Source: Thermoplasmatales archaeon
GTDB lineage: Archaea > Thermoplasmatota > Thermoplasmata > Thermoplasmatales > GCA-001856825
Length of the DNA: 64,000 nucleotides
Assembly (NCBI GenBank): GCA_026127935.1
Contig: JAJSLL010000004.1
Span: 3,590 to 67,589, forward strand
Direction of reading: 5' to 3'
Shown here: positions 4,429 through 64,000 of the stretch, piece after piece
How positions within the stretch are numbered: position 1 is the stretch's first letter
Layout: the number at the start of each line of letters is the position of its first letter
Program-made: the position numbers and the translations under genes
Notes under the pieces: generated by a model
What the model was told of the DNA's origin: nothing
Seen by the model: only the letters and a program-made list of their open reading frames with translations
Databases searched by the model: none

Positions 4429-4429
4429 A

Positions 4430-5094: not shown

Positions 5095-6570
5095 TCACTC
5101 ACCCCCGGTCACCTGAGTGTTCAGCAGTCCATACACGGAAGATGCGACACCAGCATAAGTTGCAACGTCTGAAGCTAGGTCTGCCCATCCAGAACCGGGG
5201 GCCCAACCATCTGCGGCAGCGATTACACCAACGACAGAAAGCGCAAGACCAAAGAGTGAGTTGATCTCAGGCCACAGATTGCTGGAAGCGGACGTCATAC
5301 TATCTTCTATAGTGGACCAATCTGCTGTTCCTCCATTTGACAGGGTGTAATTCTCTGCGGTTATGTAGGATGATGAAAAGAGATACTTAGCCAGGTTGTG
5401 GGGTTCCATCAATGACCATGTGGTTCCGCTGGTTATGTTCATATGACCCATGTCATAATAACCGTTCCCATTAACATTCAGAGAGGCGATCTCTGTTGTG
5501 TAATGGTAGTTGTTTGACGGCTGGTATCCACCAGAGGTGTAAATGTATTCCCTGAACTGATCCAACGTTATTGTCCCGACAACGTAAAGCATAACAGCGT
5601 GAGGGGAATTTTCGTTCAATGGAAGGGCGTTGTAAGCGGTTATTCCATCTACCCAGGTGCCGTTACTGTTTTCAGGAGAAGTGTAGGAGCTGTTGGAAAG
5701 TACCGAGTAAGAGATAGACCCACTGATACTGCTTATTTGACCCACATGAAAAAGTGCTTCTTGGCTCGCAGAGCCCAGAAATACTGATATGTCGATTTCC
5801 TCGTTGTTGCTAGATAGTATGGAATTGTTTGCCCAAGCCAGAGGAATAGTCTCATTACTAAATGACGTTGATTTGATCAAAGACCAGAAGTTGCTGTCGT
5901 TTCCTCCTCCTATTCCAAGAGGCAGGTCATTTGTTCCCACTATCGATGGATACTGAGTGGAAGAGGTGTCGACATATCCTTTCATAGATGCAAGGGAGGG
6001 GTGATCTTGGAATGTTATGTTGCTTAGATGATGGTATCCGTATATCTCGGTCACATTAAGGAAATTGCCTGTGAGCAGAACGTAAAACGCGGGGTTGAAA
6101 GGTACCACTACAGACTGATAATAGACCATAGTAGTGTTGTTTTCAATATAGTAGTAAGAGACCTCCGCTATATAGGACGTCATTGCACCCAAGTTTCCAG
6201 TGTGCATGAAGTAGGACGTCCAGTTATCTGCGAGGGAGTAGAAGCCGTATGATAGGTTGGTGACTAAATATCCAGTGGAATTTGTGGTTCCGTTAAAGAG
6301 AGGTGCCACGTTTACATAAGAATGCAACCAGGTGGCTACGGATGGTGGGGGATTTACGAAGATCTGAACGGATGCATAGAGGAACTCTGCAGGAGCTGCA
6401 TTAAGGCCTGTGGATGCGGGAGCGATAGACAGTACAAGTCCAGGTCCCAACTCCTTTGCGGGTTGCGGTGATGAGCGCTCATATAGATCAATTCCTAAAG
6501 AGAGAGATGCGACAACTATAACTGCAACTATAACTGCAACTATAACCACAATGGTTCTTTTCATTGTCAT
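5095..6570 (-). CDS. membrane-anchored extracellular protein, very rich in N-glycosylation sequons
   Basis: Long ORF with an N-terminal TM segment (TIVVIVAVIVAVIVVASL). The body is rich in Asn/Ser/Thr/Tyr with many N-x-S/T sites (NGT, NST, NLS, NWT, NNT, NVT, NIT, NET, NSS, NYT ...). The C-terminus is hydrophobic and Gly/Ala-rich. ATG at 6570 is preferred; the ORF track starts at TTG 6582. Confidence 0.65.
   Translation of the reverse strand: MTMKRTIVVIVAVIVAVIVVASLSLGIDLYERSSPQPAKELGPGLVLSIAPASTGLNAAPAEFLYASVQIFVNPPPSVATWLHSYVNVAPLFNGTTNSTGYLVTNLSYGFYSLADNWTSYFMHTGNLGAMTSYIAEVSYYYIENNTTMVYYQSVVVPFNPAFYVLLTGNFLNVTEIYGYHHLSNITFQDHPSLASMKGYVDTSSTQYPSIVGTNDLPLGIGGGNDSNFWSLIKSTSFSNETIPLAWANNSILSSNNEEIDISVFLGSASQEALFHVGQISSISGSISYSVLSNSSYTSPENSNGTWVDGITAYNALPLNENSPHAVMLYVVGTITLDQFREYIYTSGGYQPSNNYHYTTEIASLNVNGNGYYDMGHMNITSGTTWSLMEPHNLAKYLFSSSYITAENYTLSNGGTADWSTIEDSMTSASSNLWPEINSLFGLALSVVGVIAAADGWAPGSGWADLASDVATYAGVASSVYGLLNTQVTGGE
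6513..6546. repeat. 12-nt tandem repeat, about 2.8 copies (CAACTATAACTG)
   Basis: Read directly from the sequence. It encodes the (VAVI)n stretch of the N-terminal TM helix of the surface protein. Confidence 0.8.
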
Positions 6571-6938
6571 CAGACCAGACAATATATGATGACTGCTTTA
6601 ATACTACGTCCAAGTTAGAAAATGTATTTTGAACTGTTCTATTCACAAATCAACCCTTGAATTTCGTTGAGAAGTGTTGTGTAGCAAAAAAACAAAAATG
6701 GGAGAACTTCTTCACCATACTCGTATCAAGGTCGTCATTCCATATTTTCCACACGATTCCAGCGTAGATTATCAAAACGACTGGAACGAAAATCTATAAG
6801 ACCAGACTCATCTAGCTCATCAAATCAATCGAAGAAAAAGGTATAACGTCTTCTGAATGCACTGAAGAAATTTTCAAAAGAACCCAAGTACCGGAAGGGA
6901 ATAAGAACATTTTTTTAATCCAAAGTTATGCGCACTAA

Positions 6939-9491: not shown

Positions 9492-9525
9492 CAAATGATT
9501 TATTTGTAGAAATAGTGTCTATTCA

Positions 9526-9900
9526 GTGGCAAAAAGACCCAGCGATGCTGAGCTCATCTTCAACGTTCTGACCATCCTGAGGAAGAATGGAGAGATCGTG
9601 GGTGAAATAAAATTCCTCGATTTTCTCAAGAACAGGAAGATTAGCGCATCCCCAAAAAGGTTCAGGAAGCTGATATATGAGATTCCTGAAATAGAAGTTT
9701 CAGTGAAATATTCGAGCAAGAAGTTCGCGTCCCTTGACGACTGCCCCGTGTGCAGTTCAAAGCTCACCACGATGAGGGGAATAAACCTCGAGGGAAAGAA
9801 GAAAATTATAGGCTACAAATGTGGAAGGTGCGGGTACAACTCCACCAGCAACGGGAAACCATATATATATACGTTCAGATTAAAGAATCATGATCTCTGA
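9526..9900 (+). CDS. hypothetical protein with C-terminal zinc ribbon
   Basis: 124 aa with a GTG start. It has CPVC...(x24)...CGRC. Its end overlaps the next gene by 11 nt. Confidence 0.45.
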   Translation: MAKRPSDAELIFNVLTILRKNGEIVGEIKFLDFLKNRKISASPKRFRKLIYEIPEIEVSVKYSSKKFASLDDCPVCSSKLTTMRGINLEGKKKIIGYKCGRCGYNSTSNGKPYIYTFRLKNHDL

Positions 9901-10306
9901 CATTGAAAAAAATTACATCATAGTCAAGATTGAAAAGGGGGAGGATGTTGGAGAATCAATCACCAAGGTTCTCGATGATTATGGTATCTTTTCCGGTCTG
10001 GTTGAGTTCGGAATAGGCATGATAAGAGACTTGGAGATTGGATACTGGAATGGAAAGGAGTATGATAAAGCACAGCTCCAGTCACCAGGAGAGGTTGTCT
10101 CTTTCCACGGGAGTATATCTAGCAACGAACCAAGGCTCCACATCCACGTATCAGTGGCGTTAAGCGATCACTCAGTAAATGGAGGGCACTTCTTTTCCGG
10201 AACTGCTGACCCGCTCATGGAAGTTCACATTCTGAAGTTGGAAGAAATTGTTCTGAAGAGAGCCCTGAACAAGAAGACTGGTTTAAAGGAACTGATAATA
10301 GAATAG
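9890..10306 (+). CDS. PPC/DUF296-domain protein (putative DNA-binding)
   Basis: 138 aa. The pattern ...FHGSISSNEPRLHIHVSVALSDHSVNGGHF..G.ADPLMEVHI resembles PPC (DUF296) domains. Confidence 0.55.
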   Translation: MISDIEKNYIIVKIEKGEDVGESITKVLDDYGIFSGLVEFGIGMIRDLEIGYWNGKEYDKAQLQSPGEVVSFHGSISSNEPRLHIHVSVALSDHSVNGGHFFSGTADPLMEVHILKLEEIVLKRALNKKTGLKELIIE

Positions 10307-10498
10307 GAGATCGTGGGCCCAGGGAACCGCTACAAGTTGAAAGGCTCATATCATCTTTTAAAACAGTCCTATCTTCGGTTGAAGTAAAACCGAAACCGCA
10401 TAATTCCGCTTTGCGACCGCAGTTCGACTGTTGCCATCCGCAGAATGCATCAAAATTCTTATAAATGATAAATAGAACAACTTGATGTGTAAGCGCCC

Positions 10499-11008
10499 AT
10501 GAAATTTTCCATCAGAATTCCTCTCTGGGTTTCCGTAATTGGATACCTTCTCTTCTTTGTAATGATAGTGGGGTTCACCGTTTTTCTTCCTTGGATAGTT
10601 CCGGTATCACTAATCATTGGGGCTTTCCTGATCGGATTGATTGCCTGGGGAATTCACAAGAGAGTGATGAACTGGCTCATGTTCATTGTGATGGTCCTGG
10701 TCGCATTCATATTCTTTTTCCTTGCGTCAAAGGGATTCGTATTATTTGTGGAAACGAACGTCCTTGGAAAAATCTTCCTGATAGCAGGGATTTCAGGCCT
10801 AGCGATCATATTTCTTGGGAGGGAAAATAGAGAAATAAGGGAATTCGAAAGATTCATAGGGTTTGAAAGTCCCCTGAAGGGACTCCGGAAGAATAGCAAG
10901 TATGTGGCTGGGACTTTCTTTGACTTTAGAAGCGTCTGGTCTAAGATCTATCATCCAAGTCCCAAGAGCAAACTCAGGGTCAAGAAGAAGAAATTCTTCC
11001 AGAGATAG
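10499..11008 (+). CDS. hypothetical membrane protein
   Basis: 169 aa with four predicted TM stretches followed by a basic tail (KLRVKKKKFFQR). Confidence 0.5.
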   Translation: MKFSIRIPLWVSVIGYLLFFVMIVGFTVFLPWIVPVSLIIGAFLIGLIAWGIHKRVMNWLMFIVMVLVAFIFFFLASKGFVLFVETNVLGKIFLIAGISGLAIIFLGRENREIREFERFIGFESPLKGLRKNSKYVAGTFFDFRSVWSKIYHPSPKSKLRVKKKKFFQR

Positions 11009-11276
11009 TTTGGAGCCCGGCTCACTGATTGCTTCTTTTCATTTAGATGGCGTTCCTATATAACCTCGAATTAGAAATAACATACAAATTGGGCCACTTT
11101 AATTTCAGTTAAGATTGTATTCTAGTGAAAGAGAACTCGTCTCCACGACTAGATCTTTCAGTTTCCCTTATTTGATCTCTGAGAATCCCGTCTATTTCTC
11201 TTAATTATCAGTAAAGAAATATACATTGGAACACTAAGACAAATTTGCTATTGAACTTCGCCGGAGCAGTATAACT

Positions 11277-11852
11277 TTAGTTTGAGAATAGTTTCTTAAC
11301 CCTTTCAGTGAGCAGCAATGTTCCTATAGACAGAACTTTCTCATTCTCCACATCTATTGCAGTCATGGATGCAAGCTTGATGTCTATACCGTAACTTTCC
11401 CTTTCGTTCAATCCCAGAAAACTAGCCGTGAGGACCCTTATGGGAAGAGCATGGCTTACAAACAGGTACTGTCCCTCGTAATCAGCAAGCGCACTCTTCA
11501 ACCTATTTAACTGAGAACTCCAAGTCTCCATTCCCAGATCTTCCCTGTTTAACTTAGGGACTTCGTCTACTTTGTATCCGTTATAGGGCCCAAGACCCGA
11601 CTCCCTTATCTTGGAATTTTCCGTTACCTTCAGGCCGATGACTTCTCCGACGGTCCTAGCGGTCTGCTTGGTCCTGAGAAGAGGACTGCAGACGATTCCA
11701 TCAAACTTCAGTCCCTTAAGTTGCTCAGCCGAGAAGAGAATCTGTTCTACCCCTCTTTCTGTCAAAGGGTATTGATTCACGTCTTCTGAAATGATGTTGT
11801 TGACATTTGCAAAACTCTCACCATGCCTCATTAAGATCAGTTTCTTTATCAA
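11277..11852 (-). CDS. histidine phosphatase family protein (phosphoglycerate-mutase-like)
   Basis: 191 aa with the N-terminal LILMRHGESxAN catalytic motif and a downstream SHA motif. Confidence 0.75.
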   Translation of the reverse strand: MIKKLILMRHGESFANVNNIISEDVNQYPLTERGVEQILFSAEQLKGLKFDGIVCSPLLRTKQTARTVGEVIGLKVTENSKIRESGLGPYNGYKVDEVPKLNREDLGMETWSSQLNRLKSALADYEGQYLFVSHALPIRVLTASFLGLNERESYGIDIKLASMTAIDVENEKVLSIGTLLLTERVKKLFSN

Positions 11853-11972
11853 TTAACTCAACCAATCTTTAATGCATCAATTTAATAAAATTTTGCGTAA
11901 AGAATGAGCGTCGGTTGTCAATGCTCCGAAGAGTTTCCTGTGTAGAATAATTATATTTCAAAGTTACTTGCT

Positions 11973-12857
11973 TTATAGCGTTCTGAAATGATCAAAACCA
12001 GTGAGAGACTTAGTATTGCCCTCTAGATCTACCACGCCCCTGCCTTCCAAAACTCTTCCTAACAGAGGGTAACCTTTCAGTCTTTCAGGAGAAGTAAATA
12101 GAAGTTCGTAGTCTCCCCCTGTGGAGTATAACAAGACTCTTTCATCTTCACTCTTCGAATTTTCAGAGATGTTGTGTTCGATCCTTATCTTGACTCCGCT
12201 CAGAGTGGCGAGAAGTCTCAGCGATTTGTAAATTCCATCCGAGTTGTCGATGCAGGAAGTGATCCTGGAATTGCGGAGAGATTTCAGTACATCAAATCTG
12301 GGTCTTATGTCCAGGATTTCTTCAGTTTTTCGTTTATTCCCTTTATGATATTCCAATATCGCTCGTTCATTTTTCCCAATGGTGGAGGACGCATAAACAA
12401 AATCCCCTGATCTGGCGCCATTTCTTCTAAATTCTCTTCCCTTCTTGACTTCGCCAATGATCATTCCTGTCAAAGAAATCTTTTTTGACTCCTTGAGGTC
12501 TCCTCCAGAAAATTTGACCTTGTATTTACCCAGTTCACTCTTGACCCCTGAGGTGAGGGAGGATACCCAACCCGCATCAAGAGTTCTTGGAAATGAGAAG
12601 GATACCATCATCTCGAGAGGTCTACCATTCTTTGAAGCTATGTCGCTCAGATTGATGTCGACGAGAAATTTTCCGATCAATACCGGGTCCCACCACTTCT
12701 CGAAATGATAACCCTCATTGATGGTGTCCATTGCAATCAAGAGGAACTTCCTTCCCTGATCCAGGAAGTGGACATCCTCGTCTTCGTTCTTTTCCCCTAT
12801 GATCTTCCAAATTTTATCAATGAGTTTTCTCTCCCCTAGTTCTCTTATCTCCATCAC
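11973..12857 (-). CDS. thiL: thiamine-monophosphate kinase
   Basis: 294 aa with an N-terminal ELGERKLIDKI and an AIR-synthase-related fold pattern (AMDTINEGYHF, GGDL). Confidence 0.75.
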   Translation of the reverse strand: MMEIRELGERKLIDKIWKIIGEKNEDEDVHFLDQGRKFLLIAMDTINEGYHFEKWWDPVLIGKFLVDINLSDIASKNGRPLEMMVSFSFPRTLDAGWVSSLTSGVKSELGKYKVKFSGGDLKESKKISLTGMIIGEVKKGREFRRNGARSGDFVYASSTIGKNERAILEYHKGNKRKTEEILDIRPRFDVLKSLRNSRITSCIDNSDGIYKSLRLLATLSGVKIRIEHNISENSKSEDERVLLYSTGGDYELLFTSPERLKGYPLLGRVLEGRGVVDLEGNTKSLTGFDHFRTL

Positions 12858-12894
12858 AAAGATAATTAGATGTAGTTAAATAAATTATCAACTG

Positions 12895-13605
12895 ATGGAC
12901 GAGATAGAGGTCGAGAACAGCATATTCTTCACCAGATATGGAGCGGCATTTCTGGAGGATATTTCCGCTGTTGTAGTATCCGACGTCCACCTTGGTTATG
13001 AAGACGTTCTCGCCATGAATGGCATATTTATACCAAGGGTCCAGTCCCAAATGATTTATGACACCGTTGACCTGATTATCAACAAGTACAAACCGGAAAA
13101 GTTCATAATTAACGGTGATCTGAAACACGAGTTTTCCCACAACACACCCCAGGAATGGAGCGACGTGTATGAGCTTCTGAGGAGGGTAGGTGAGAAATCA
13201 GAACCCATTGTGATAAAGGGCAATCACGACAACTACGTTGCAAACATAGCGTCCAAACTGAACCTAAGAACGTACGACACGTACAAGGAAGGAAGGTATA
13301 CTTTTCATCACGGTCACAAGAATTTCAAGTGGGATGACATAGGAATAATAGGGAATGAGCATCCTGCTGTGGGTCTCAGGGATTCCGTGGATTCTGTTTT
13401 GAAATTGCACTGCTTCCTCTACTTCAAAAAAGAGAGATTGATCGTCCTTCCTGCGATGTCTATCTACGCAGGCGGTTCAGACATCTTGAAGAATGAAATC
13501 AACTCACCAGTTCTGAAGAAGGTAGATCTCGATGAAGGGAGGGTCTACGGTCTCTGGGATGCATACGGAACTATCGATCTCGGGAATGTGAAGGGGCTCC
13601 TATGA
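12895..13605 (+). CDS. metallophosphoesterase (calcineurin-like)
   Basis: 236 aa with motifs VVSDVHLG, NGDLKHEF, GNHD, HHGH and GNEHP, in canonical order. Confidence 0.75.
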   Translation: MDEIEVENSIFFTRYGAAFLEDISAVVVSDVHLGYEDVLAMNGIFIPRVQSQMIYDTVDLIINKYKPEKFIINGDLKHEFSHNTPQEWSDVYELLRRVGEKSEPIVIKGNHDNYVANIASKLNLRTYDTYKEGRYTFHHGHKNFKWDDIGIIGNEHPAVGLRDSVDSVLKLHCFLYFKKERLIVLPAMSIYAGGSDILKNEINSPVLKKVDLDEGRVYGLWDAYGTIDLGNVKGLL

Positions 13606-14327
13606 TTGGTTTCATCTCTGCTGGATTCAACCCACCCTCCAGTTTCACGAGGGAGGAACTTGATTTTCTTGACAAGTCCAAACTAATACTTGTCGACACT
13701 TACACTTCTCCGAATTACATAAGAGAATTTGGCAATAGAGAGCTGACATTTGTTGGTAGAGACAAGCTTGAAAATTTCGAATGGATCTTAAAGGAAGAGG
13801 AAGACGTTTCAATCGTCATCCCCGGTGACGCATTTTCAGCCACTACTCATTTCACAATTTATAAGGAAGCGAAGCTCAGAGGGATCGAAGTCAAGACGTT
13901 TCACAACACATCAATCTTCCCAACGGCTGCAACCAGACTGGGCATGCACCTTTACAAGATCGGCCCTGCTGTGTCCTTGCCAAGATTCAAGGAGAATTTC
14001 AGGCCACTCTCCCCCTACGAGAAAATATTCCAGAATTTCACGAATGGCTTCCACACAATTCTGCTCCTAGATACGGAACCACCACTGGGGCTGAGGGATG
14101 CACTGGATGAACTTCTATGGATGGAATCGCAAGGGAAGAGAGGTCTTTTCAGCAAGGACAGGGAGGTGGGTATTGTTAGCAATCTTGGCACTCCAGACGA
14201 AAGAATTGTTTACGGAAAGATCGACAGTCTGAAGAAACAAGATGAGATCAAAGTTCCACTCACAATAGTCATACCCTCAGACCTTCATTTTCAGGAAAAG
14301 GAAGCCCTCGATTTGTTCCGTACATAG
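13602..14327 (+). CDS. dph5: diphthine synthase
   Basis: 241 aa with GDAFSATTHFTIYKEAKLRGIEVKTFHNTSIF, typical of tetrapyrrole-methylase-fold Dph5. It overlaps the upstream gene by 4 nt. Confidence 0.85.
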   Translation: MIGFISAGFNPPSSFTREELDFLDKSKLILVDTYTSPNYIREFGNRELTFVGRDKLENFEWILKEEEDVSIVIPGDAFSATTHFTIYKEAKLRGIEVKTFHNTSIFPTAATRLGMHLYKIGPAVSLPRFKENFRPLSPYEKIFQNFTNGFHTILLLDTEPPLGLRDALDELLWMESQGKRGLFSKDREVGIVSNLGTPDERIVYGKIDSLKKQDEIKVPLTIVIPSDLHFQEKEALDLFRT

Positions 14328-14403
14328 TTAAGTTTTACTTATTTCAGTAGTCTCATAAAGGTTTATTACTGCGTTGCCATATACGGAGAAAGTAGGTGAA
14401 AAG

Positions 14404-55565: not shown

Positions 55566-55994
55566 ATATAGATGGAAAGTATATTATGATTGCTTGAAAA
55601 TTGACAATTTGATGCCGGCGAAAGTTGAAACTGGTAGACTTTATGATGACTCAGGCAACTCATCCGGACGGTATTTGTGTCAAGGGATATCACATTAAAA
55701 TACAATTCCAACATAATCCAATTGCCAGAATGATGTATTGGTTTTTTACTGGGACGCTAATTATGGGCGATATCCTGCTGCCGTGGCAATAGGAACAACA
55801 CTTTTTGCGTTTTCTTTACTGCGACTTCAGGAGGGTATGGCCACATCTTTCATAAGAATGCGGATCTTCATTCAGCAATCTGGCTTGCTGGACTCGGTAT
55901 TGGTGGGGTCGTCCTTGATTCCTGGCTTTTCACTAAAATCACAGCGGGACACGAACACTGTTGGGATTGATACTAGGTCTAGCTTTCATTCTAC

Positions 55995-56174
55995 CTACCG
56001 TGAGAATGCTCTGGGAAGGATTGGTACCCGTAGCCTTTGAACACAGCTCATTCTCCCGACTTCAGACAGATCCTCCCTGATTTTCAATTCGTTGACAAAT
56101 TTCTTTATCAGCTTCTTGATTTCGTTGTTGTGCGGCCCTTTCTCAAGCATTCTATCACGCTTGTTCAGTAGCAT
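55995..56174 (-). CDS. hypothetical small protein (59 aa) at the border of the AT-rich element
   Basis: Hand-translated as MLLNKRDRMLEKGPHNNEIKKLIKKFVNELKIREDLSEVGRMSCVQRLRVPILPRAFSR. It is just under the ORF-track cutoff. The N-terminal 40 aa look like a real helical protein and the tail looks degenerate. Confidence 0.3.
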   Translation of the reverse strand: MLLNKRDRMLEKGPHNNEIKKLIKKFVNELKIREDLSEVGRMSCVQRLRVPILPRAFSR

Positions 56175-56253
56175 TTGAACATTTTGAGATTTAGGCTGTT
56201 CATATAACGCCGTGGGGGAGAGTATTAATGAAAGTTAGAATCCCTATCATTAT

Positions 56254-56278
56254 TATAGCTAATATTATTATAATTATA
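56254..56278. repeat. left copy of imperfect direct repeat (TATAGCTAATATTATTATAATTATA)
   Basis: It aligns with 58548..58574 with 24 matches, 1 mismatch and 2 single-nt indels, in the same orientation. Confidence 0.45.
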
Positions 56279-56442
56279 CTGAAAAATATAACTTTTCTTT
56301 AAATAGCACAAGTCTTAGGTAAATAATATATTTATTATTTCATAAATATGTTGTGATTTTAGACCTCACAGGTCATTTTGCGATAGTCAAACTACCTTTT
56401 GTAAAGCAACTTTTCTCTCTAATAAACAATAAACTGATTAAA

Positions 56443-57204
56443 TTATGCTTCTATGGGAGGAAAGAAAATTTCCACCTTACTCTCATTTTGAATCCGTTTA
56501 TAGCCGTCTTCCAGGAGACTCTTGAGAAGGTTTGCTTTTAATTCAAAACTTGCCCTAATCTCACCTTTTTTTCTGGTAAGTGACACTTTCAAAAATATTA
56601 AAGAGGCCGCTACAACCACTATTCCAATTAAAACGTTCCGTATTATACCTTCAAGCCCTCCTGGTGAAATGATAAGCCCATAAATAATGTCAAATAGGCC
56701 GCCAGGAAGAAGTATTACAAACATCATATCTACAAGTTCCATAACAGTTTTCTTTGCCCCCTTCTTATAATCAATTTGGTAGAGTGGAAGAGTAAGAACC
56801 TGATACGTAGAGTTATCAGAAGACGCTTTTTTTACAATTTTATCGTTTACATGAGGATGTCGAGTCTGGAACTCTGGTTTCAGGATGCTATTGATACAGT
56901 CTTCCGAATCACCAACGCATTTAATCAATTTCAACCCATATAATACACGTGAATGATCTACCAAGATGACCGAAATCGAAACAACAGCAAAGAGGAAAAT
57001 TATAGCTATTAGAGCCCCTAAAAATATCGCTGTCGCATACGAGACCTCTTGTCCTAGGACAGAAAATATTGACAGCAGTAACGTGACTAAACTTGAAAGT
57101 ATCAACGGAAAAAACTTCTTGTAGGTTTCAATGCGCATCACATTTTTCGAGTTTTTTGCGTATAGGTCAGCAGTTTCCTTAATGAAATCATGTAAAGTGA
57201 ACAT
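56443..57204 (-). CDS. hypothetical 4-TM membrane protein
   Basis: 253 aa with two TM hairpins (about residues 33-83 and 155-207) separated by a soluble loop of about 70 aa. It lies 3 nt downstream of the RHH gene. Confidence 0.6.
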   Translation of the reverse strand: MFTLHDFIKETADLYAKNSKNVMRIETYKKFFPLILSSLVTLLLSIFSVLGQEVSYATAIFLGALIAIIFLFAVVSISVILVDHSRVLYGLKLIKCVGDSEDCINSILKPEFQTRHPHVNDKIVKKASSDNSTYQVLTLPLYQIDYKKGAKKTVMELVDMMFVILLPGGLFDIIYGLIISPGGLEGIIRNVLIGIVVVAASLIFLKVSLTRKKGEIRASFELKANLLKSLLEDGYKRIQNESKVEIFFPPIEA

Positions 57205-57207
57205 AAG

Positions 57208-57369
57208 TCAACTTTTTTTCTGTTTTTCTATCCTTCTCTCAGTAAGTTCTCTTCTTATAAGGTTCTCAACAAGGTCTTTCGCTGAAAGACCATTTTCTAG
57301 AGCGTAAACTCTAGCTTTCTTCCATAGGTCCGAATCTATTCTAAAACTCGTCACCTGGTCCTTTGACAT
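57208..57369 (-). CDS. ribbon-helix-helix (CopG/Arc/MetJ-type) DNA-binding protein
   Basis: 53 aa from ATG 57369 (the ORF track starts at GTG 57390). It has a beta-strand TSFRIDSDLW, helix A KKARVYALENG and helix B SAKDLVENLIRRELT. Confidence 0.7.
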   Translation of the reverse strand: MSKDQVTSFRIDSDLWKKARVYALENGLSAKDLVENLIRRELTERRIEKQKKS

Positions 57370-57447
57370 ATTATTTTGTAATAATGTCACTTTACTAATA
57401 CTTGTCGATTCGTAGCATTGTAGTAAAGTATTAATATAAAACTACTA

Positions 57448-57461
57448 TACTACTTGTAGTA
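57448..57461. promoter_or_regulatory. palindromic operator candidate TACTAC-TT-GTAGTA in a divergent promoter region
   Basis: Perfect 6-nt arms. It lies between a TATA-like TTAATATAAA (57431-57440) and the ATG at 57471. Extra GTAGTA/ACTAC hexamers lie at 57420-57425 and 57441-57453. Confidence 0.5.
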
Positions 57462-57470
57462 GGTGACAAA

Positions 57471-57668
57471 ATGGATAGAGAAAGCATTGAATTTTGGAAC
57501 GGTGCCTTGAAGTGTGCCATAAAGATGGAAAGGAAAGCGAGGGAATGCAGCAACATAGACCAACTGAGGGAAGAGATCTCTTACATGAGGCAGAGGATCG
57601 AGGATGTGCATATTCAGGACCCTGTCGAAGTTCTGAATATGATAGAAGAAGAGAAGGTGATAGATTGA
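57471..57668 (+). CDS. hypothetical small helical protein A (65 aa)
   Basis: The first gene of a three-gene plus-strand unit. It has the N-terminal motif EFWNGALKCAI. Its stop overlaps a TTG start of the next ORF (TTGA). Confidence 0.5.
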   Translation: MDRESIEFWNGALKCAIKMERKARECSNIDQLREEISYMRQRIEDVHIQDPVEVLNMIEEEKVID

Positions 57669-57901
57669 ACGCCGAGGACCAGAGGTTTTGGGATGGATTC
57701 CTGAAGGGAATACTTGCATGTGAAATCCTCGTAGAAGACATGCAAGAAGGCCTAAAGAACGAGAAAGGTAGCTTATATCCGGCACAGCTTACCATAGCGC
57801 AACTAAAAGACAACGTGGAAAGGATGCTTTCACGAGATACCTTAAAGACGCTAGGGGAAAGGAACCGAGAGCTGAGGGGAATATTGGAGGAGATAAGATG
57901 A
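57665..57901 (+). CDS. hypothetical small helical protein B (78 aa), paralog of A
   Basis: It is in frame with track ORF 57494..57901, but I propose a start at TTG 57665. The upstream part of the track ORF overlaps gene A and has poor composition. The N-terminal motif RFWDGFLKGIL parallels that of A. Confidence 0.45.
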   Translation: MNAEDQRFWDGFLKGILACEILVEDMQEGLKNEKGSLYPAQLTIAQLKDNVERMLSRDTLKTLGERNRELRGILEEIR

Positions 57902-58107
57902 TAGAGGATGACATGGATGATAGGGAACCCGAATCCTTCCATAGGGAGCAATACATGGAAGGCCTGATAGACGGATTGACATTGGCAATAACGCATCCTG
58001 ACAAACTAGAAGAATTGAGGAATTTCAGGGATACCGTGCTATTTTCGAAAGTCAAGGCTGCATGGCTGCCTACCCTAGTGGGACTAGGGATATTGAAGGA
58101 CTTTTAG
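57898..58107 (+). CDS. hypothetical small protein C (69 aa) with hydrophobic C-terminus
   Basis: It has an ATGA overlap with B. It shows loose similarity to the A/B motif (YMEGLIDGLTLAI). The C-terminal AAWLPTLVGLGIL looks like a membrane anchor. Confidence 0.45.
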   Translation: MIEDDMDDREPESFHREQYMEGLIDGLTLAITHPDKLEELRNFRDTVLFSKVKAAWLPTLVGLGILKDF

Positions 58108-58126
58108 CCATTCAAACTAACAACTT

Positions 58127-58162
58127 CCTTTTTCTTTTTTTGATTTCCTGTTTTCGAGTTTT
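58127..58162 (+). terminator. oligo-T termination region after the A-B-C unit
   Basis: CCTTTTTCTTTTTTTGATTTCCTGTTTTCGAGTTTTGC starts about 20 nt after the stop. Archaeal RNAP terminates at T-runs. Confidence 0.4.
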
Positions 58163-58494
58163 GCAACGTCAGGATCTCTGCTTTTACAATTAACGAATGA
58201 GGGAATACGATTATTCCGTATTCGACAGACATAAGCAGCTTCCAGGATATCTCTCCGGATCCTTCATTCCAGGAATGCAGCTGCTCTCAGGTCTCGCAGG
58301 CCTGTGAATCTTGTCCATCTTAGTTTGGACAACTAAATAGGCGATATATCTGAGTCCTCACAAATAACTACTCTTGCTGTGTGAATGTAGTCTTTATCTC
58401 CAGGATTAAATTTCGATACAATGATATTCGTTGGGCATCATCCACGGTTACAAGAAATACCTGAGCAACTTTTAGGGGAAACAACCAAAGGTAG

Positions 58495-58533
58495 AAAAAT
58501 GAGTCCCCCCTCTGGGGCAGTCACCGAAAAAAG
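58495..58533 (-). terminator. T-runs flanking a short GC hairpin downstream of the minus-strand operon
   Basis: The minus strand reads CTTTTTTCGG...CCCCAGAGGGGGG ACTCATTTTT, about 80-115 nt after the stop at 58611. Confidence 0.35.
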
Positions 58534-58547
58534 TAGACTTCAATTAC

Positions 58548-58574
58548 TATAACTAATATCTATTATAATATATA
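58548..58574. repeat. right copy of imperfect direct repeat (TATAACTAATATCTATTATAATATATA)
   Basis: See 56254..56278. It lies between the stop of the 248-aa gene and its putative terminator. Confidence 0.45.
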
Positions 58575-58610
58575 GGGGCCCGTATGAAGACTGTTTGGTA
58601 ATTGGTAATC

Positions 58611-59357
58611 TTATTCAATTTCATCGTCGTATTCGTCCTCCTCGTCATTACCGTCATCGTTACTGTCGGTAATATCATCATCGTCTATTAACTGGTTCTT
58701 CTTGTCTTTTAGGATTCGGTTTACATCACGCAAGGACATGTGCATAATTCTTGCAATATTAGCCTGGCTCTCGCCATCCTCGTAAAGGTCAAACACTTTA
58801 TCTTCTCTTTCTGTTTTTTCTTCTCCAGGGTTCTTGAGGGCATTATCTATAATCGTCAGCATCATCTTTTCTATGAATTCTGACAGCTCAACGAATTTTC
58901 CTCCAATCTTCTGGCAATCTAATTGTACCTGGACTTTATTTCTCTGTCTTTCATACGTGCCCATTGCTGGTTGGTCCTCATCTATCCCTGTAATGGTCTT
59001 ATCACTTACACAGCCGTAAAGGCCCTTGTAGCAGGAGAGGAGTCTTGGTAAGTCTGCCCTCCATGCGTCTTGGGGTCCGGAATATCTGACCTTTATCGGG
59101 CGTTCTTGCGTGCTGTAGGTGGAGATATAATTAACAAGTGCCCATAAATGATACGGGTCTCTGATTATCTCTTCGTATGTTTTGTGTATTCCATGGTTTT
59201 CAAGATATTCCCTATACTGGTCTGAAAGAATTAACCATTCAAAATACGGAGGTGCGTAGCCGTCTTCTTTTTGGCTTGGGTATTCCTCCGGTATCCAGAA
59301 GTTGTTCGTTACGTCTCGCCACATATTTGGTCTTCTTTCTTTCTCACGGTATCTCAT
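58611..59357 (-). CDS. hypothetical protein with C-terminal HTH and polyacidic tail
   Basis: 248 aa. The HTH-like segment is GESQANIARIMHMSLRDVNRILK (sigma-region-4/terminase-small-subunit-like). The tail is DDDDITDSNDDGNDEEDEYDDEIE. The N-terminal 170 aa are unrecognisable. Confidence 0.55.
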   Translation of the reverse strand: MRYREKERRPNMWRDVTNNFWIPEEYPSQKEDGYAPPYFEWLILSDQYREYLENHGIHKTYEEIIRDPYHLWALVNYISTYSTQERPIKVRYSGPQDAWRADLPRLLSCYKGLYGCVSDKTITGIDEDQPAMGTYERQRNKVQVQLDCQKIGGKFVELSEFIEKMMLTIIDNALKNPGEEKTEREDKVFDLYEDGESQANIARIMHMSLRDVNRILKDKKNQLIDDDDITDSNDDGNDEEDEYDDEIE

Positions 59358-59361
59358 TATC

Positions 59362-59769
59362 TCACCTTTTTGCCGTCAGGTCTCCCATAACGGAGACGAT
59401 TGCGTGCTTGAATACAAGGACATTCTGTCCTGTTCTTGAATCTATCAGGATTATGTCATACTGGCCGAAACTGGCTAGCTTTCCTGTTATCGTCTTACCG
59501 TTCACTAGTTCTAACGTCAGCATCTTTCCTATAAGCTGTTTGCCAAAGTTGTCTATCTGTCCTGGATAGATTGTCTGGTACCTGAAATTCGGTGCTGATT
59601 TTTCCGGATCGTTGCCATGCGAATTTGTCAATTCCTTGTTTGTTGCGTCTATGCTTTCACTCATTCTATTCACTTCCCCAGGAACTAAAGCATCCTGGTC
59701 TCTGTCCTCAGAAATGGTGGACATTGAACCGGATCTCGTGTTGTCAATTTTATGATGCAGATATCTCAT
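59362..59769 (-). CDS. Hfq/Sm-like domain protein with N-terminal extension
   Basis: The C-terminal 55 aa, LIGKMLTLELVNGKTITGKLASFGQYDIILIDSRTGQNVLVFKHAIVSV, are colinear with E. coli Hfq [39 protein letters not shown]. The start is uncertain: ATG 59769 (ATGA-coupled to the upstream micro-ORF), ATG 59784 or TTG 59802. Confidence 0.6.
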   Translation of the reverse strand: MRYLHHKIDNTRSGSMSTISEDRDQDALVPGEVNRMSESIDATNKELTNSHGNDPEKSAPNFRYQTIYPGQIDNFGKQLIGKMLTLELVNGKTITGKLASFGQYDIILIDSRTGQNVLVFKHAIVSVMGDLTAKR

Positions 59770-59894
59770 TTTTCCATCCTCCATCTTTTGATTGCTTTCC
59801 AAAACCGATCAAGATATTCCATTGAGTCCAGGATCATGACAAGCATCACAAACAGGGAGAGAAATACGAGAGCAAGCAATCTGACGTATATCAT
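59766..59894 (-). CDS. micro-ORF, 42-aa single-TM protein
   Basis: Absent from the ORF track. Hand-translated as MIYVRLLALVFLSLFVMLVMILDSMEYLDRFWKAIKRWRMEK. It has ATGA overlaps at both ends (59891-59894 and 59766-59769). Confidence 0.45.
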   Translation of the reverse strand: MIYVRLLALVFLSLFVMLVMILDSMEYLDRFWKAIKRWRMEK

Positions 59895-60418
59895 TCTTCA
59901 TTACCCCCGTTATCAATTGATTTAAGAGGAGATTGAGGACTAAGACGAGCAATTACACCTTTGGAATCTATCATCTCAGAAATGGCATTGTCTGAATACC
60001 CTTTTTGAACTTTCTTTCTGGATTCAGCTAGACTCTTTCCCCTCTGTCTGAGATTGTCGGATCTTTCCTCTGAGATCTCATGGTGCTTTCCTAACCATGC
60101 TTTCTCCCTTCTCCGATATTCTCGAATGGGATCCTTGATTGTATCAGGTAGGTCAGGGTCAATTCCCTCAGTTCCCTTTCTAACTATAAAATCCCTGTTA
60201 AGCATCTCCAGGGTGAAGTATCCCTGAGCTGCTTTCCTCTTGAGTTTCTTCATGGAATTAGTTATGGTCCTGAAGTGTGGGTTTTTGCAGATACTATCTT
60301 GACTATACCATGCTTGGAGGGGATTGCTTGAAAGAGGGCACAAAGGGCATTCACATTTCCCATACAAAGGACAGCTTTCAGGTCCTTTCAATCTGTTTTC
60401 GATACTCATTTCAATCAC
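59891..60418 (-). CDS. hypothetical protein with N-terminal Cys cluster
   Basis: 175 aa with CPLYGKCECPLCPL...C near the N-terminus and a basic C-terminal half. It starts at GTG 60418 (8-nt overlap with the upstream gene) or ATG 60409. Confidence 0.5.
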   Translation of the reverse strand: MIEMSIENRLKGPESCPLYGKCECPLCPLSSNPLQAWYSQDSICKNPHFRTITNSMKKLKRKAAQGYFTLEMLNRDFIVRKGTEGIDPDLPDTIKDPIREYRRREKAWLGKHHEISEERSDNLRQRGKSLAESRKKVQKGYSDNAISEMIDSKGVIARLSPQSPLKSIDNGGNEE

Positions 60419-60656
60419 TCTCCGTCAAAAAACGAGGGTCCACGAAGGGAAGGATACTATCATGGACCCTCAAATATCTCGAAGGGCCAAAGGCAGCACG
60501 GCCAGACGGAGGTTTTGATTCTTGATCCAGCCTGCTGTCTAAGGCCCTTCCATTCAGATTAACACGCTGTAAAGAACCTGAAGGTTCGAAGTGGTAGAAT
60601 TGAATGCAATTCAAGCTGTCCTCGTAATCTATGAATTTGACAAATTCATAGGTCAT
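60411..60656 (-). CDS. hypothetical protein (81 aa)
   Basis: The track ORF 60411..60731 is trimmed to ATG 60656. This start forms an ATGA overlap with the stop of the 748-aa gene (MTYEFVKFIDYEDS...). Confidence 0.45.
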   Translation of the reverse strand: MTYEFVKFIDYEDSLNCIQFYHFEPSGSLQRVNLNGRALDSRLDQESKPPSGRAAFGPSRYLRVHDSILPFVDPRFLTESD

Positions 60657-62899
60657 TGGGATTCCCCCACGTCTATCGGTCTCTCGTAAAGAAATCCGTC
60701 TTTTGACTGATTGACAAAGCGAAATCCACAATCCTTCATTTTATCGTCAGGCCTAAAAGGTGCCAAAACGTAGATCAGGAATCGATTATTTTCTCTGTCG
60801 ATCTTGGATGCTTCCTGATTTATCGTTATGTCCTTAGACCTCACTTCTTGAATCACATCATTAAAGTGATTAACTTCCATTTCTCGGTTCAACTCGATTA
60901 GTTTAATTAACTCGTTTAACCTTTTCAGTGAATTTTCGGCTTCTATCCGTATTCTCGAAACATCCCTAGTTTTGAGAAAATCAATTAACCTCCGATTAAC
61001 TCCGTTTAACTCGTTTAACCTCAAACCCTCAATTTTTGTGTTAATTGAGTTAAACGAACTAATTGAGTTAATCAGACTAATCAAGTTAATTAAAGTCTCA
61101 TCGTTATCACTTTCACCTTCATTATTCAGGTTAAATCTACTCCTTGCCAGGTTTATGAGTTCAAGATTGGACTCAAAGACGGTATAGTTGTGAGGTCCAG
61201 TACGAAAATCTCTCCCTATGTCCAGATAGATGAGTTTCTTCTTGATCTTCGAACTGTAAGTCCGGGGATTGAATTTCTTGGTCTGATTGACACCTTCCTT
61301 ATCTGCAATTAGCCCTGCTATCTCCTTTAGGCCAATCTCGCCCTTGAAGTCTATGCTCTTGCTCTTCTCCTGTATCAGCTGTTCTAAGCCGTCTATTACT
61401 ACCTGGTCGAAAGAATCAAGCGATATCTCTATTGCCTTGTCTTTCTGGTCATATAGAAATTCCCATACCTTGTTGGTGATATCGCTGTTGCCGTTTTGTT
61501 TGTCAAAAAATCGAGCTAGGACCAATAAGGGAAATGCCTTCTCCCATTCACGGCCCCTGACTTCTATTTCCTTGCCGTTTACGTTAGCCTTGTTTGAAAT
61601 GCCCTCGGATATCACGGTTTTGATTTCCTTCCAGTAGGTCAGCGTGAAAATCATAAGGCCGTCTCTCAGCTTTCCCCATTCCGGATTGAACGCCGAAACG
61701 TTGTTATTTGCTTTCTTGCTATCTTGCGTTCGGATCATAATGAAAACATATGATCGGTCCCTTATCGTTTCTGTCACATTGTTGATCGAGCAAAGGATCT
61801 TAGGCGAATAGGTAGGATACAGGACCCTCTTATTCCTGTGGCCTACTAGTTCAAGTCTCTGGACCTTCCCACTGGCCTGGTAACCTGAGTTCACGATGGC
61901 TTCTATATCCAGTTGATTTTCTGATTTCTCCTTGACGGTCATCTTCTCGTTTTCATCCTGGATAACAGTGCCCTGGGTGTCCTTGATTGTCCGGTATAGG
62001 TTCGGGCCAGTTACCGCAACTGTCTTGAAAGCATTGAAATCAAGCTGCTCATGGATATCCCCTACCTTGCTCTTTGCCGATCCCATTTCACCCTGCATTA
62101 GAAGATAAGGAACTGCTGTAAACAGTCTATAACAATATGTCAGGACCGTATATAACGAGTGAATCGTGCTTGCATTGACATTTCTTGCAAAATCAATATA
62201 TTCCTCATAACTGCTGACAAGTGAGTTGAAAAGCGACGTAGGTTCTATCTTTTCTTCTCCTTTCAGGAATCTTTGAATCGAATCAGTGGACCATCGGTCA
62301 TCGGGTATATCGTCAGGTTCTTCCAGGATGTATTTCTCTTTCAGTAGGTCATGGGAATTGAGTAACTGGACCTCTCTCTCGGAGGTTACCAGGAATAAAC
62401 CGAGCGCCGTGGTCTCTCCTATCTTTTTTCCTTCCTTATTGAAAAGTGGTTTTAGGTAAGGCAGCTTGGTCAGGAAATATGCCTTGTCATCAAAATACTG
62501 GGATGGATTGAACTTCTTCATTTGTTGGAATATTATCTTTGACCCGTCCTTCGCATTGAAAAGTTCGCCTATATTTTCCTGGTCATTTTTAGTCTTCAGT
62601 TCCGTAATTGTTCTTTCCCTGAAATCTGCTATTTGCTGTTCTTCTCTCTCTATACTCTCGATTGTTATCTTGTCTATCTTTCCTCTCAGGTCCTTAGGTA
62701 GTTCTTTTCTATATTTACTGCATATTTTCAATGCTCTCTGGACCTGCTTGGCATTCCACTTATCTTTCTGCTCGATTAGGTATTGTGCATCCTCGCCATC
62801 CATTTTATCTATGATTTGACCGTTCTTCTCGTTTGTCTTGCCTGTATCTGTGTTCACCAGGTAGATGAGACCTTTCCTAACATCATCTAGTTGCGTCAT
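60653..62899 (-). CDS. SF3-helicase-like P-loop NTPase (replicative helicase candidate of the element)
   Basis: 748 aa. It has a Walker-A-like QGEMGSAKSKV (GxxxxAKS), a Walker-B-like GTVIQDENE and a motif-C-like ILCSINNVT in that order. It lies immediately downstream of, and overlaps by 17 nt, the PrimPol gene. The C-terminal part contains hexapeptide repeats LINLIS/LINSIS/SFNSIN. Confidence 0.6.
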   Translation of the reverse strand: MTQLDDVRKGLIYLVNTDTGKTNEKNGQIIDKMDGEDAQYLIEQKDKWNAKQVQRALKICSKYRKELPKDLRGKIDKITIESIEREEQQIADFRERTITELKTKNDQENIGELFNAKDGSKIIFQQMKKFNPSQYFDDKAYFLTKLPYLKPLFNKEGKKIGETTALGLFLVTSEREVQLLNSHDLLKEKYILEEPDDIPDDRWSTDSIQRFLKGEEKIEPTSLFNSLVSSYEEYIDFARNVNASTIHSLYTVLTYCYRLFTAVPYLLMQGEMGSAKSKVGDIHEQLDFNAFKTVAVTGPNLYRTIKDTQGTVIQDENEKMTVKEKSENQLDIEAIVNSGYQASGKVQRLELVGHRNKRVLYPTYSPKILCSINNVTETIRDRSYVFIMIRTQDSKKANNNVSAFNPEWGKLRDGLMIFTLTYWKEIKTVISEGISNKANVNGKEIEVRGREWEKAFPLLVLARFFDKQNGNSDITNKVWEFLYDQKDKAIEISLDSFDQVVIDGLEQLIQEKSKSIDFKGEIGLKEIAGLIADKEGVNQTKKFNPRTYSSKIKKKLIYLDIGRDFRTGPHNYTVFESNLELINLARSRFNLNNEGESDNDETLINLISLINSISSFNSINTKIEGLRLNELNGVNRRLIDFLKTRDVSRIRIEAENSLKRLNELIKLIELNREMEVNHFNDVIQEVRSKDITINQEASKIDRENNRFLIYVLAPFRPDDKMKDCGFRFVNQSKDGFLYERPIDVGESQ
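60886..61095. repeat. iteron-like repeat cluster and imperfect palindrome inside the NTPase gene
   Basis: Copies of TCG(T/A)TTAAC-type units lie at 60891-60901, 60909-60920, 60992-61000, 61001-61010 and 61011-61019. An exact inverted copy GTTAAACGA lies at 61049-61057. The pair CTCAATT/AATTGAG flanks a T-rich centre at about 61036. Three 18-nt direct repeats of the form TAATTGAGTTAA-N6 lie at 61060-61077 and 61078-61095, with 61042-61059 as the leading copy. Confidence 0.7.
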
Positions 62900-63767
62900 G
62901 CTTTGATTCTCCTTTCAGCATTTTTGCTACCGTCTCAGTTGCTAGGCCGTACTTTCTATTTGCAACTTCCAGGACTTCCCAGAACTTATCTCCCCTCAAA
63001 GTTCCTGGCACAGCATCGGCACAATCAATTATTCCTTCGCTGACTGCGATCCATTCAAGAACGGACCCTCCGGAATCATGCCTGAAGCAGTGCCAGACGT
63101 TTTTTTCAATATCCACTGATAGATTTATTCCTGTTTCGGATCCATGAATGGGATGCGGGCCCTGGTACTGATTTCCGAAATGCCTGAAGCCAGCGAGGTC
63201 TATTAAGTCAGCTAAGGATAACCATGCTGTATTCTTCCTATTGACTTGGGGCCTTTCCTTCTTTTCGTTTGACCTTACCATGAACGGTCTCAAGGCTTCG
63301 ATAAGCTCCTCTTTCGTTATAATCTTGATAGGGTATTCTGATTTTCTGAGGCCATAAATCGCACCATTGGGATGTATTGAACCAGGACCAACAGCGTAAC
63401 CGTTCTGCCCTTTGATATATGCTCCGTCTTTGAGTGGAATATTCCTTATCGGAGGGTTTGATATTGCATAGACATACTGGCGATGGCCTTCTCTCCCTGT
63501 AGAATACCAGTAGGTTGGCAATCTGTCATCTAAGGCCGTTTGAATTTCCTTGGTATCCGCATCAACAAAACAGCAATCACCATTAGGACAGAATAGACCA
63601 TAATTTCCTCCTTTCCTAACCCACTCTTCAATCTCTTGACTGCTGAATGCATAATTTCTCTCAGTGGTCCATCCTCTTTCAAGTGGCTCTTTACGGGCGG
63701 GTAGAAGCTTGATACATCGGAACTTCGTATCGTTAAAATCTAACGTATGCCCTGTTTCCTGTTTCAC
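62883..63767 (-). CDS. bifunctional DNA primase/polymerase (PrimPol, archaeo-eukaryotic primase superfamily) with C-terminal zinc-binding motif
   Basis: 294 aa with a GTG start. It has KLLPARKEPLERGWT, the acidic motif CCFVDADT, and STGREGHRQYVY (sGxGxH-type motif). The C-terminal HPIHGSETG...WHCFRHDSGGSVLEWI resembles a CHC2-type primase zinc finger. Confidence 0.75.
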   Translation of the reverse strand: MKQETGHTLDFNDTKFRCIKLLPARKEPLERGWTTERNYAFSSQEIEEWVRKGGNYGLFCPNGDCCFVDADTKEIQTALDDRLPTYWYSTGREGHRQYVYAISNPPIRNIPLKDGAYIKGQNGYAVGPGSIHPNGAIYGLRKSEYPIKIITKEELIEALRPFMVRSNEKKERPQVNRKNTAWLSLADLIDLAGFRHFGNQYQGPHPIHGSETGINLSVDIEKNVWHCFRHDSGGSVLEWIAVSEGIIDCADAVPGTLRGDKFWEVLEVANRKYGLATETVAKMLKGESKHDATR

Positions 63768-63883
63768 TTAAATTCCCCCACAATGAAAAATAATCCTAAA
63801 AGAAGCCCTGAAACTAAAAATATAATAGCCAGATTGATATAGTGAATTGCGGAAATTCCATTTTTCCCTTTTATTTTACACAT
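63764..63883 (-). CDS. micro-ORF, 39-aa single-TM protein
   Basis: Absent from the ORF track. Hand-translated as MCKIKGKNGISAIHYINLAIIFLVSGLLLGLFFIVGEFK. It has a GTGA overlap with the PrimPol start and a TAATG overlap with the upstream ORF. Confidence 0.4.
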   Translation of the reverse strand: MCKIKGKNGISAIHYINLAIIFLVSGLLLGLFFIVGEFK

Positions 63884-64000
63884 TAATGACCGTACCTCTC
63901 TTCTCGTTTTCCGGACAATATCTTGTCGTTCTGGTCCACGATGGACCGGTCCAGTTCCTTAAGCTCCTTCCTCAAATTTCTCAGTTGTTCCTGAACAAAT
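63883..64000 (-). CDS. hypothetical coiled-coil protein, 3' part only (gene starts beyond the right edge)
   Basis: The minus-strand frame is open to the window edge: ...FVQEQLRNLRKELKELDRSIVDQNDKILSGKREERYGH, then stop. Confidence 0.4.
   Translation of the reverse strand, partial: FVQEQLRNLRKELKELDRSIVDQNDKILSGKREERYGH

Follow-up and report, generated by a model that had tools for sequence, protein, structure and literature searches.

What kind of element fills the right end of the 64-kb window analysed here (64,000 nucleotides of contig JAJSLL010000004.1 from an acidophilic Thermoplasmatales archaeon; all coordinates are those of the window), and how did it come to lie beside host genes of archaeal type such as those for Pus10, ValRS and UDP-sulfoquinovose synthase? 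An earlier note on this DNA, made from the sequence alone, proposed an integrated plasmid- or virus-like element, rich in unannotated genes, around a PrimPol and P-loop replication module, and in both respects the data presented below bear it out. The preferred reading, to which a probability of about 0.65 is assigned, is that 56222-64000 constitutes the distal 7.8 kb of a ~10.7-kb integrative, plasmid-like cryptic integrated element that uses a XerA/C/D-like integrase and targets the 3' end of tRNA-Ser(TGA). The evidence leans towards a plasmid rather than a virus. On this reading what had been an element of uncertain nature is an integrative plasmid, precisely delimited and recently mobile, that is directed at one defined site, tRNA-Ser(TGA).

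Left junction and empty sites

Three features lie at the left border of the element:

56208-56221, minus strand: attachment (att) core, TCTCCCCCACGGCG, the final 14 nt of tRNA-Ser(TGA) in displaced position, identical to the tRNA 3' end in L105, L106, L107 and L110
56222-56442, no strand: AT-rich distal arm (first 220 bp, 23% GC) with conserved blocks at 56231-56244 and 56284-56306
55971-56174, minus strand: remnant of an integrase gene (approximately residues 20-82 of a 415-aa family integrase), found by tblastn with family integrases

Four contigs from other assemblies (L105, L106, L107 and L110), located through an exact match to the PHO4 protein of the window, are 99.0-99.6% identical to the window leftwards from 56221, over 2.3-9.7 kb and as far as ~46.5 kb. 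At the point where this identity stops each contig contains an intact tRNA-Ser(TGA), and the element is absent. These contigs are empty sites, of the kind that the earlier note had hoped a comparison with related genomes would reveal, and they show that the element is missing from sister strains. As the last 14 nt of the tRNA correspond to window positions 56208-56221, where identity to the empty-site contigs begins, the left junction of the element lies between 56221 and 56222. The border previously placed at 56216 is therefore real, although its exact position was six bases off. The att core, TCTCCCCCACGGCG, occurs as a single copy within the window, and was first noticed through a 19-nt exact match between 56203-56221 and the 3' end of the tRNA-Ser(TGA) in another contig, L018. 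An independent Logan assembly of run SRR15116022 (L111) covers 56094-57542 at 100% identity; as this contig spans the occupied junction, the junction is not an artefact of binning or assembly. In L105 and L106 genes for diphthamide synthase, a formyltransferase and a radical-SAM protein come before the tRNA-Ser, a flank that recurs in L018 and L027.

The distal-arm blocks GGGATTCTAACTTT and TATTTAAAGAAAAGTTATATTTT are also present in L066 and L073, where a tRNA-Asp 3' fragment and an integrase follow immediately downstream. The AT-rich arm presumably serves as a conserved att arm, the tRNA-specific core of which can be exchanged. The overall layout in L066 (2445-4726) and L073 resembles that of the window, comprising a distal arm, a tRNA 3' fragment and a decayed integrase, with a tRNA-Asp core and a frameshifted integrase gene; a toxin pair judged by eye to be MazF/PemK-like comes before it.

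When family integrases were compared with the window by tblastn, the only match was at 56153-55971 (48-54% identity, E 5e-10 to 1e-8), and the 59-aa open reading frame (ORF) at 55995-56174 matches the integrase N-termini of 20 loci. The element-free contigs L105-L108 have this stub as well, likewise placed after the 3' end of tRNA-Ser. Because the empty sites carry it too, the stub is interpreted, on sequence grounds, as debris of an earlier element at the same tRNA, belonging to the host backbone and not to the present element. Elements with tyrosine recombinases tend to reuse one site, building arrays of elements (PMC6563490), and an older-element stub at this tRNA-Ser fits such reuse. The ~400 bp that separate the stub from the PhoU_div gene (55566-55970) returned no matches.

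Integrase family and predicted right end

As the earlier note had stated, the right end of the element lies beyond 64000. A 5.3-kb Logan contig (L001, run SRR15116022), which encodes the exact PrimPol of the window, is 100% identical to 60804-64000 and then continues for a further 2067 bp. The extension towards the right that the note advocated thus recovered part of the recombinase, although L001 ends before the other border. The features at and beyond the window end are as follows:

63883-64000, minus strand: 3' part of a 69-aa coiled-coil ORF, the remainder of which is on L001
Beyond the window, on L001 (Pfam): a 63-aa ribbon-helix-helix (RHH) protein; a 394-aa ORF on the plus strand; the integrase C-terminus, with its stop at ~65601 in window-equivalent coordinates

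At the end of L001, 1.6-2.1 kb past the window end, are the C-terminal 154 residues of a zinc-ribbon tyrosine recombinase. Conserved catalytic-region motifs are present in this 154-aa fragment, which has 37 protein homologues, most of them with PF00589; a scan of metagenome contigs with the integrase profile identified 80 loci. Full-length integrases of the family comprise ~415 residues, with a SAM-like N-terminal domain, a PF00589 catalytic domain (E 1.3e-25) and a zinc ribbon. They are closest to archaeal XerA, whose model they match at E 1e-33 with a score under the equivalog cut-off. By these sequence features the integrase family is XerA/C/D-like and not SSV-type.

Linkage of the integrase to tRNA genes is consistent across the family. 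Wherever a tRNA was found beside the integrase in the 80 loci, it lies immediately upstream. In all 13 tRNA-linked loci checked in detail an intact tRNA ends shortly upstream of the integrase ORF, the tRNAs at family integrases being Ser-TGA, Ser-CGA, Arg-GCG and Asp-GTC, with tRNA-Thr in more distant members. Two of the contigs, L018 and L027, carry an integrase at the same tRNA-Ser with the same host flank as the window. In L055, 842 nt separate the tRNA 3' end from the start of the downstream region that matches the 154-aa fragment; transfer of this spacing to L001 places the predicted regenerated tRNA-Ser 3' end near window-equivalent 66.9 kb, which would make the element ~10.7 kb long. 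The nearest tRNA to the window should therefore be Ser-TGA, expected ~2.9 kb past the right end. Within the 64-kb window ARAGORN found no tRNA genes, with the intron search on or off, and no Rfam family was detected at either gathering or E-value thresholds. No distal att repeats of at least 12 nt were found in the 10-kb flanks of family loci, and L099, L100, L102 and L104 contain no tRNAs or long direct repeats. In L018 (9692-10657) the integrase is otherwise intact, and the start methionine of its relatives (FMVTPYK) is replaced by lysine (FKVTPYK), the gene call beginning 100 codons downstream; this copy may be inactivated.

The statements of the earlier note that no integrase and no tRNA target were visible, and that the mechanism of integration was open, do not stand. 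The 14-nt tRNA-Ser 3' fragment (56208-56221) and the integrase remnant (55971-56174) sit immediately to the left of the border, and the empty-site contigs, the displaced tRNA fragment and the integrase gene 1.6-2.1 kb past the window point to a tyrosine recombinase acting on tRNA-Ser(TGA). In the proposed mechanism a short core in the attP site of the element would recombine with the last 14 nt or more of the tRNA-Ser. A replacement 3' end for the tRNA would come from the integrase-proximal (right) end of the element, at ~66.9 kb, and the original 14 nt of the tRNA would thereby have been displaced to 56208-56221. The excised circle would replicate via its own PrimPol and a P-loop protein resembling the Rep of the Sulfolobus plasmid pXZ1, with RHH and helix-turn-helix (HTH) proteins controlling transcription of the operon and an Hfq homologue acting on RNA. 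The working mode is ordinary, textbook tRNA targeting, and the accepted view of such elements is unchanged.

Replication module, Hfq and the remaining genes

The block differs in composition from its host. Its GC content is 0.410 (56222-64000) compared with 0.440 ± 0.012 (minimum 0.421) in equal-sized host windows, and its tetranucleotide distance to the host profile is 0.195 compared with 0.116 ± 0.020 (maximum 0.163) for those windows. The compositional shift is genuine yet modest. The genes form a tightly packed series of minus-strand ORFs, with stops and starts that overlap or abut, and one short divergent pair on the plus strand. The AT-rich block, the long minus-strand operon and the divergent small-gene cassette described previously are all recovered in these profiles and in the ORF layout. 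Likewise, the folds that had been called hold up, namely PrimPol, Hfq, RHH, HTH (weakly) and P-loop (by its Walker A and B motifs). The label of orphan genes does not, as at least 80 metagenome loci form a syntenic family in which homologues of the integrase, PrimPol, helicase, 175-aa protein and Hfq are found.

Two genes make up the replication module:

62883-63767, minus strand: PrimPol (archaeo-eukaryotic primase, AEP), 294 aa, with a C-terminal DnaG-type CHC2 zinc finger (PF09250, PF01807)
60653-62899, minus strand: P-loop replication protein, helicase- or initiator-like, 748 aa (Walker motifs, hhalign)

The match of the first protein to PF09250 (E 1.4e-10, 42.3 bits against a cut-off of 22.8) identifies the product of 62883-63767 as a PrimPol of the AEP type. 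This assignment agrees with a PHROG DNA primase match (E 4e-12) and with the motifs read from the translation, VDAD (motif I), GREGHRQY (motif II) and GPGSIHP (motif III). The zinc finger matches PF01807 (E 3.4e-4) and the DnaG zinc-binding domain in PDB 1d0q (E 3.5e-4), so that the protein joins an archaeo-eukaryotic primase domain to the zinc-binding domain of a bacterial primase.

In the alignment of the 748-aa protein with its homologues a Walker A motif (G..G.AKSK, with GKS or GKT in distant members), a Walker B motif (hhhDENE), an NSGY sensor motif and arginine columns are evident. The protein aligns with the central region of the 1077-aa pXZ1 Rep over 248 columns (hhalign probability 98.1%, E 1.3e-13), a relationship also detected by tblastn, and a distant homologue, P0015, contains PF12307 and PF12965 (DUF3631 and DUF3854). 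For this helicase-like protein the likeness to pRN-type plasmids suggested in the earlier note is borne out. Within the family the replication module is interchangeable, and consists of PrimPol and helicase, of helicase and a downstream protein with AEP-like motifs, or of a fused protein of ~1000 residues. The second arrangement is seen in L028 (5346-6455), L056 (5095-6120) and L072 (5115-6152), where the PrimPol gene is absent and a protein of ~345 residues is encoded downstream of the helicase. These proteins have no Pfam match; by eye they display the AEP-like motifs FEIDDDNW, SGNHSIHIHVF and IRLEGSINEKSGKY, and may represent an unrecognised primase family. The 3' part of the helicase gene of the window (60848-61094) contains direct and inverted repeats, among them a 16-mer, TTAACTCGTTTAACCT, that occurs in identical form at 60907 and 61006, and inverted arms of 17-25 nt. 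The repeats encode a repeated peptide, RLNEL, and a low-complexity segment, LINLISLINSI, that are conserved in homologues; they could be an origin or iterons within the rep gene, or merely a coiled-coil repeat.

The most unusual feature of the element is a conserved Hfq on an archaeal mobile element, encoded next to a widely distributed cysteine-rich protein:

59362-59802, minus strand: Hfq homologue; the likely gene is 59362-59664, as the conserved core of 100 aa begins at Met47
59891-60418, minus strand: 175-aa Cys-rich protein (CPLYGKCECPLCPL), with homologues in 19-21 loci

Hfq is rare in archaea. The window protein matches PF17209 (E 3.7e-7, 30.1 bits against a cut-off of 27) and the NCBIfam Hfq model (E 4.7e-7), has 53 homologues, and is itself named 'RNA chaperone Hfq' by NCBI. 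Its Sm2 motif, FKHAI, is conserved and fits the Hfq-type pattern [YF]KHA[IV]. The core of the structural model has predicted local distance difference test (pLDDT) values >90, its 27 best Foldseek matches in the PDB are all Hfq proteins, and it superimposes on the Hfq of M. jannaschii with a root mean square deviation of 0.9 Å over 51 residues. From sequence and model together, the assignment of an Sm fold with an Hfq-type Sm2 motif appears solid. A conserved plasmid-borne Hfq would provide a handle on what Hfq-type RNA chaperones do in archaea. The 175-aa protein is, apart from the integrase, the most widely conserved protein of the family, and belongs to a group of 397 representative clusters (50% identity) at E <= 1e-3; Pfam gave no match for ten distant members of this group.

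The remaining genes of the element in the window are listed below.

56443-57204, minus strand: predicted membrane protein, 253 aa (ORF; weak Pfam matches to membrane families)
57208-57390, minus strand: RHH (Arc/CopG-like) regulator, 60 aa (PHROG Arc-like repressor, E 2.4e-5; Pfam RHH, E 0.004-0.06)
57494-58107, plus strand: divergent two-gene cassette, with a 135-aa ORF (57494-57901) and a 69-aa ORF (57898-58107) that overlap at stop and start
58611-59357, minus strand: 248-aa protein that has an acidic tail and a C-terminal HTH at approximately residues 182-218 (matches to related HTH models, among them Pfam Sigma70_r4_2 at E 0.0035)
60411-60731, minus strand: small ORF, listed as 106 aa and probably 81 aa from the ATG at 60656, which overlaps the helicase stop (start chosen by eye)

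The 69-aa cassette protein is 44% identical (E 1e-7) to an ORF in the circular relative L003, which is described below, and the frame of the 135-aa ORF also matches L003. The 253-aa membrane protein has no PHROG match, and tblastn revealed no relatives of this protein, the 248-aa HTH protein, the 60-aa RHH protein or the 81/106-aa ORF in 98 loci.

Relatives, known systems and alternative readings

The window element belongs to a family of syntenic elements that spans acidic hot-spring and mine-drainage metagenomes. The shared order is integrase, an opposite-strand ORF of 314-429 residues, a small RHH protein, the replication module, the 175-aa Cys-rich protein, small β-rich proteins and Hfq; replication modules are swapped freely while the integrase, the 175-aa protein and the Hfq homologue are kept. 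One relative, L003, is a circular contig of 14.4 kb (1-14395, with a 77-bp terminal overlap) that contains the PrimPol-helicase-175aa-Hfq core, with identities to the window element of 83% for the helicase, 77% for PrimPol and 71% for Hfq. L003 differs in encoding a 435-aa integrase-like protein without a Pfam match, and has additional, glycoprotein-like genes for two secreted products, one of 721 aa with Ig/PKD repeats and a C-terminal membrane anchor, the other of 286 aa. Other Hfq-bearing relatives (L102/L103, 5893-20207; L099, 3536-18522) have another replication protein (D5_N and DUF5906, 633 aa). Both carry defence genes as cargo, which in L102/L103 are a complete type I restriction-modification system and GmrSD, and in L099 a HEPN protein and a fusion of a methyltransferase with Mrr. 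L099 also contains a second integrase-like gene, of 435 aa, which suggests that elements form arrays.

Elements of this kind, cryptic integrative plasmids that target tRNA genes, are known, while no description of this particular family was found in the literature, the coverage of which was incomplete. Phage collections gave no match, and plasmid collections yielded two weak matches, an informative one to pXZ1 and another to a hypothetical protein encoded by a Pseudomonas megaplasmid. The pRN family of Sulfolobales plasmids is marked by a fused PrimPol-helicase Rep together with conserved CopG and PlrA. Like pXZ1, pRN1 and pSSVx/pSSVi of that family, the window element is small and cryptic, is inserted at a tRNA, could form circles, and encodes a CopG-like RHH protein and primase-type replication functions; with pXZ1 it shares the homologous Rep core described above. 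In contrast to the fused Rep, PrimPol and P-loop protein are encoded by separate genes, and the PrimPol, which has the DnaG-type zinc finger, displays no detectable similarity to the N-terminus of the pXZ1 Rep. Further differences from the pRN family are the Thermoplasmatales host and the Hfq gene, and no additional genes shared with pXZ1-type plasmids were detected, although no search was aimed at PlrA. The integrase of the window family is also distinct, being XerA/C/D-like and unsplit, whereas integrative plasmids of the pRN family use the SSV type (PMC2926602).

Three further systems bear comparison. Cryptic integrated elements (CIE) of Thaumarchaeota are bounded by an integrase, are <20 kb and lie mostly in tRNA genes (PMC6563490). 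As in those elements (PMC6563490), an AEP primase and helicase are combined with RHH and HTH regulators, and signatures of viruses, casposons or conjugation are absent; the window element falls within the CIE, which are a descriptive class and not a homologous family, and differs from the thaumarchaeal examples in host phylum and gene families. It resembles Islander-type tRNA islands (PMC4383910) in the insertion of a tyrosine-integrase element into a tRNA gene with a displaced tRNA fragment at the far end (here 56208-56221), the gene itself being expected to be restored by the island, and differs from them in having its own replication module and no obvious cargo, which is plasmid-like. With pT26-2 and the TKV elements of Thermococcales (PMC2926602, PMC6972569) it shares the character of an archaeal integrated plasmid-like element at tRNA genes with mostly unannotated genes; those elements have a split SSV-type integrase and a larger and different gene set, and no homology to the window element was found.

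The reading of 56222-64000 as part of an integrative plasmid draws on the empty sites, the independently assembled junction, the integrase and its linkage to tRNA genes, the circular relative L003, the synteny of the family and the host-unlike composition. Several observations weigh against it. The sequence at hand stops short of the right junction and of the regenerated tRNA, and it lacks the first two thirds of the integrase, on the N-terminal side; no circular form of the window element itself was observed. The 748-aa protein has no direct sequence match in Pfam or the PDB, and a profile of the helicase alignment compared with the PDB was equally empty. Its AlphaFold model, with a mean pLDDT of 63 and values <50 across the ATPase core, is unreliable in that region and was not used; nor were the Foldseek matches of this model, which were non-significant and ORC/Cdc6-like (best E 0.02, TM-score ~0.2). 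Finally, structural proteins of archaeal viruses are often unrecognisable, so the failure to detect a capsid is no proof of a plasmid. Thermoplasmatales have few genetic tools, and small plasmids that replicate themselves and integrate site-specifically are raw material for such tools.

The last of these observations bears directly on the best placed of the alternatives, itself unlikely, in which the element is a provirus, or a virus-dependent satellite resembling pSSVx, of an archaeal virus family not yet known, with capsid or envelope proteins among the unannotated ORFs (for example the 253-aa membrane protein or the 394-aa protein encoded beside the integrase). Most ORFs have no recognisable fold, and relatives contain candidate virion-type genes: L003 encodes the secreted 721-aa Ig/PKD and 286-aa proteins, and L056 and L072 encode P-loop ATPases of 436-451 residues, one with a faint Zot-like match (E 0.005). 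In addition, the Sm-like protein of Pyrobaculum spherical virus, for which a structure has been solved, is among the fold matches of the Hfq homologue. These candidate virion-type genes are, however, absent from the window element, in which Pfam and PHROGs revealed no capsid, portal, terminase or packaging ATPase, and 2.9 million IMG/VR contigs contained no relative when queried with the integrase profile, the helicase, the 394-aa protein and the 175-aa protein.

It is doubtful that the block is a decayed, immobile genomic island, a fossil that has lost its capacity for excision and replication. Decay of elements at this site is evident from the neighbouring integrase stub, L066 and L104 contain family integrases with frameshifts, and the integrase of the window element is known from its C-terminal 154 residues only. 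Conversely, strains whose flanks share 99.0-99.6% identity differ in having or lacking the element, which implies that it moved recently. The ORFs of the window part are without exception intact and closely spaced, and the visible integrase C-terminus retains its catalytic-region motifs. A broader proposal, just as doubtful, is that the window element and the loci related to it (at least 80) represent a lineage, so far unrecognised, of viruses or of hybrids between virus and plasmid whose hosts are acidophilic Thermoplasmatales and associated DPANN archaea. Structural genes of this lineage would be unrecognisable, and the conserved Hfq would run an RNA switch, through antisense or small RNAs, that controls replication or lysogeny. 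If true, this would be the first such role of Hfq on an archaeal mobile element.

Integration of the SSV type, with attP inside the integrase gene and the stub at 55971-56174 and the distal C-terminal part as two halves of one gene, is highly improbable, for although the stub and the distal fragment, at the two ends of the element, share one reading direction, as in SSV-type elements (PMC2926602), strains that lack the element carry the stub beside an intact tRNA-Ser, the att core is upstream of the stub start codon and not within the stub, and the full-length family integrases examined are unsplit, XerA/C/D-like and adjacent to intact tRNAs. A split integrase of this type had first been suggested by the N-terminal character of the stub, and was rejected in the light of the family loci and the empty-site contigs.

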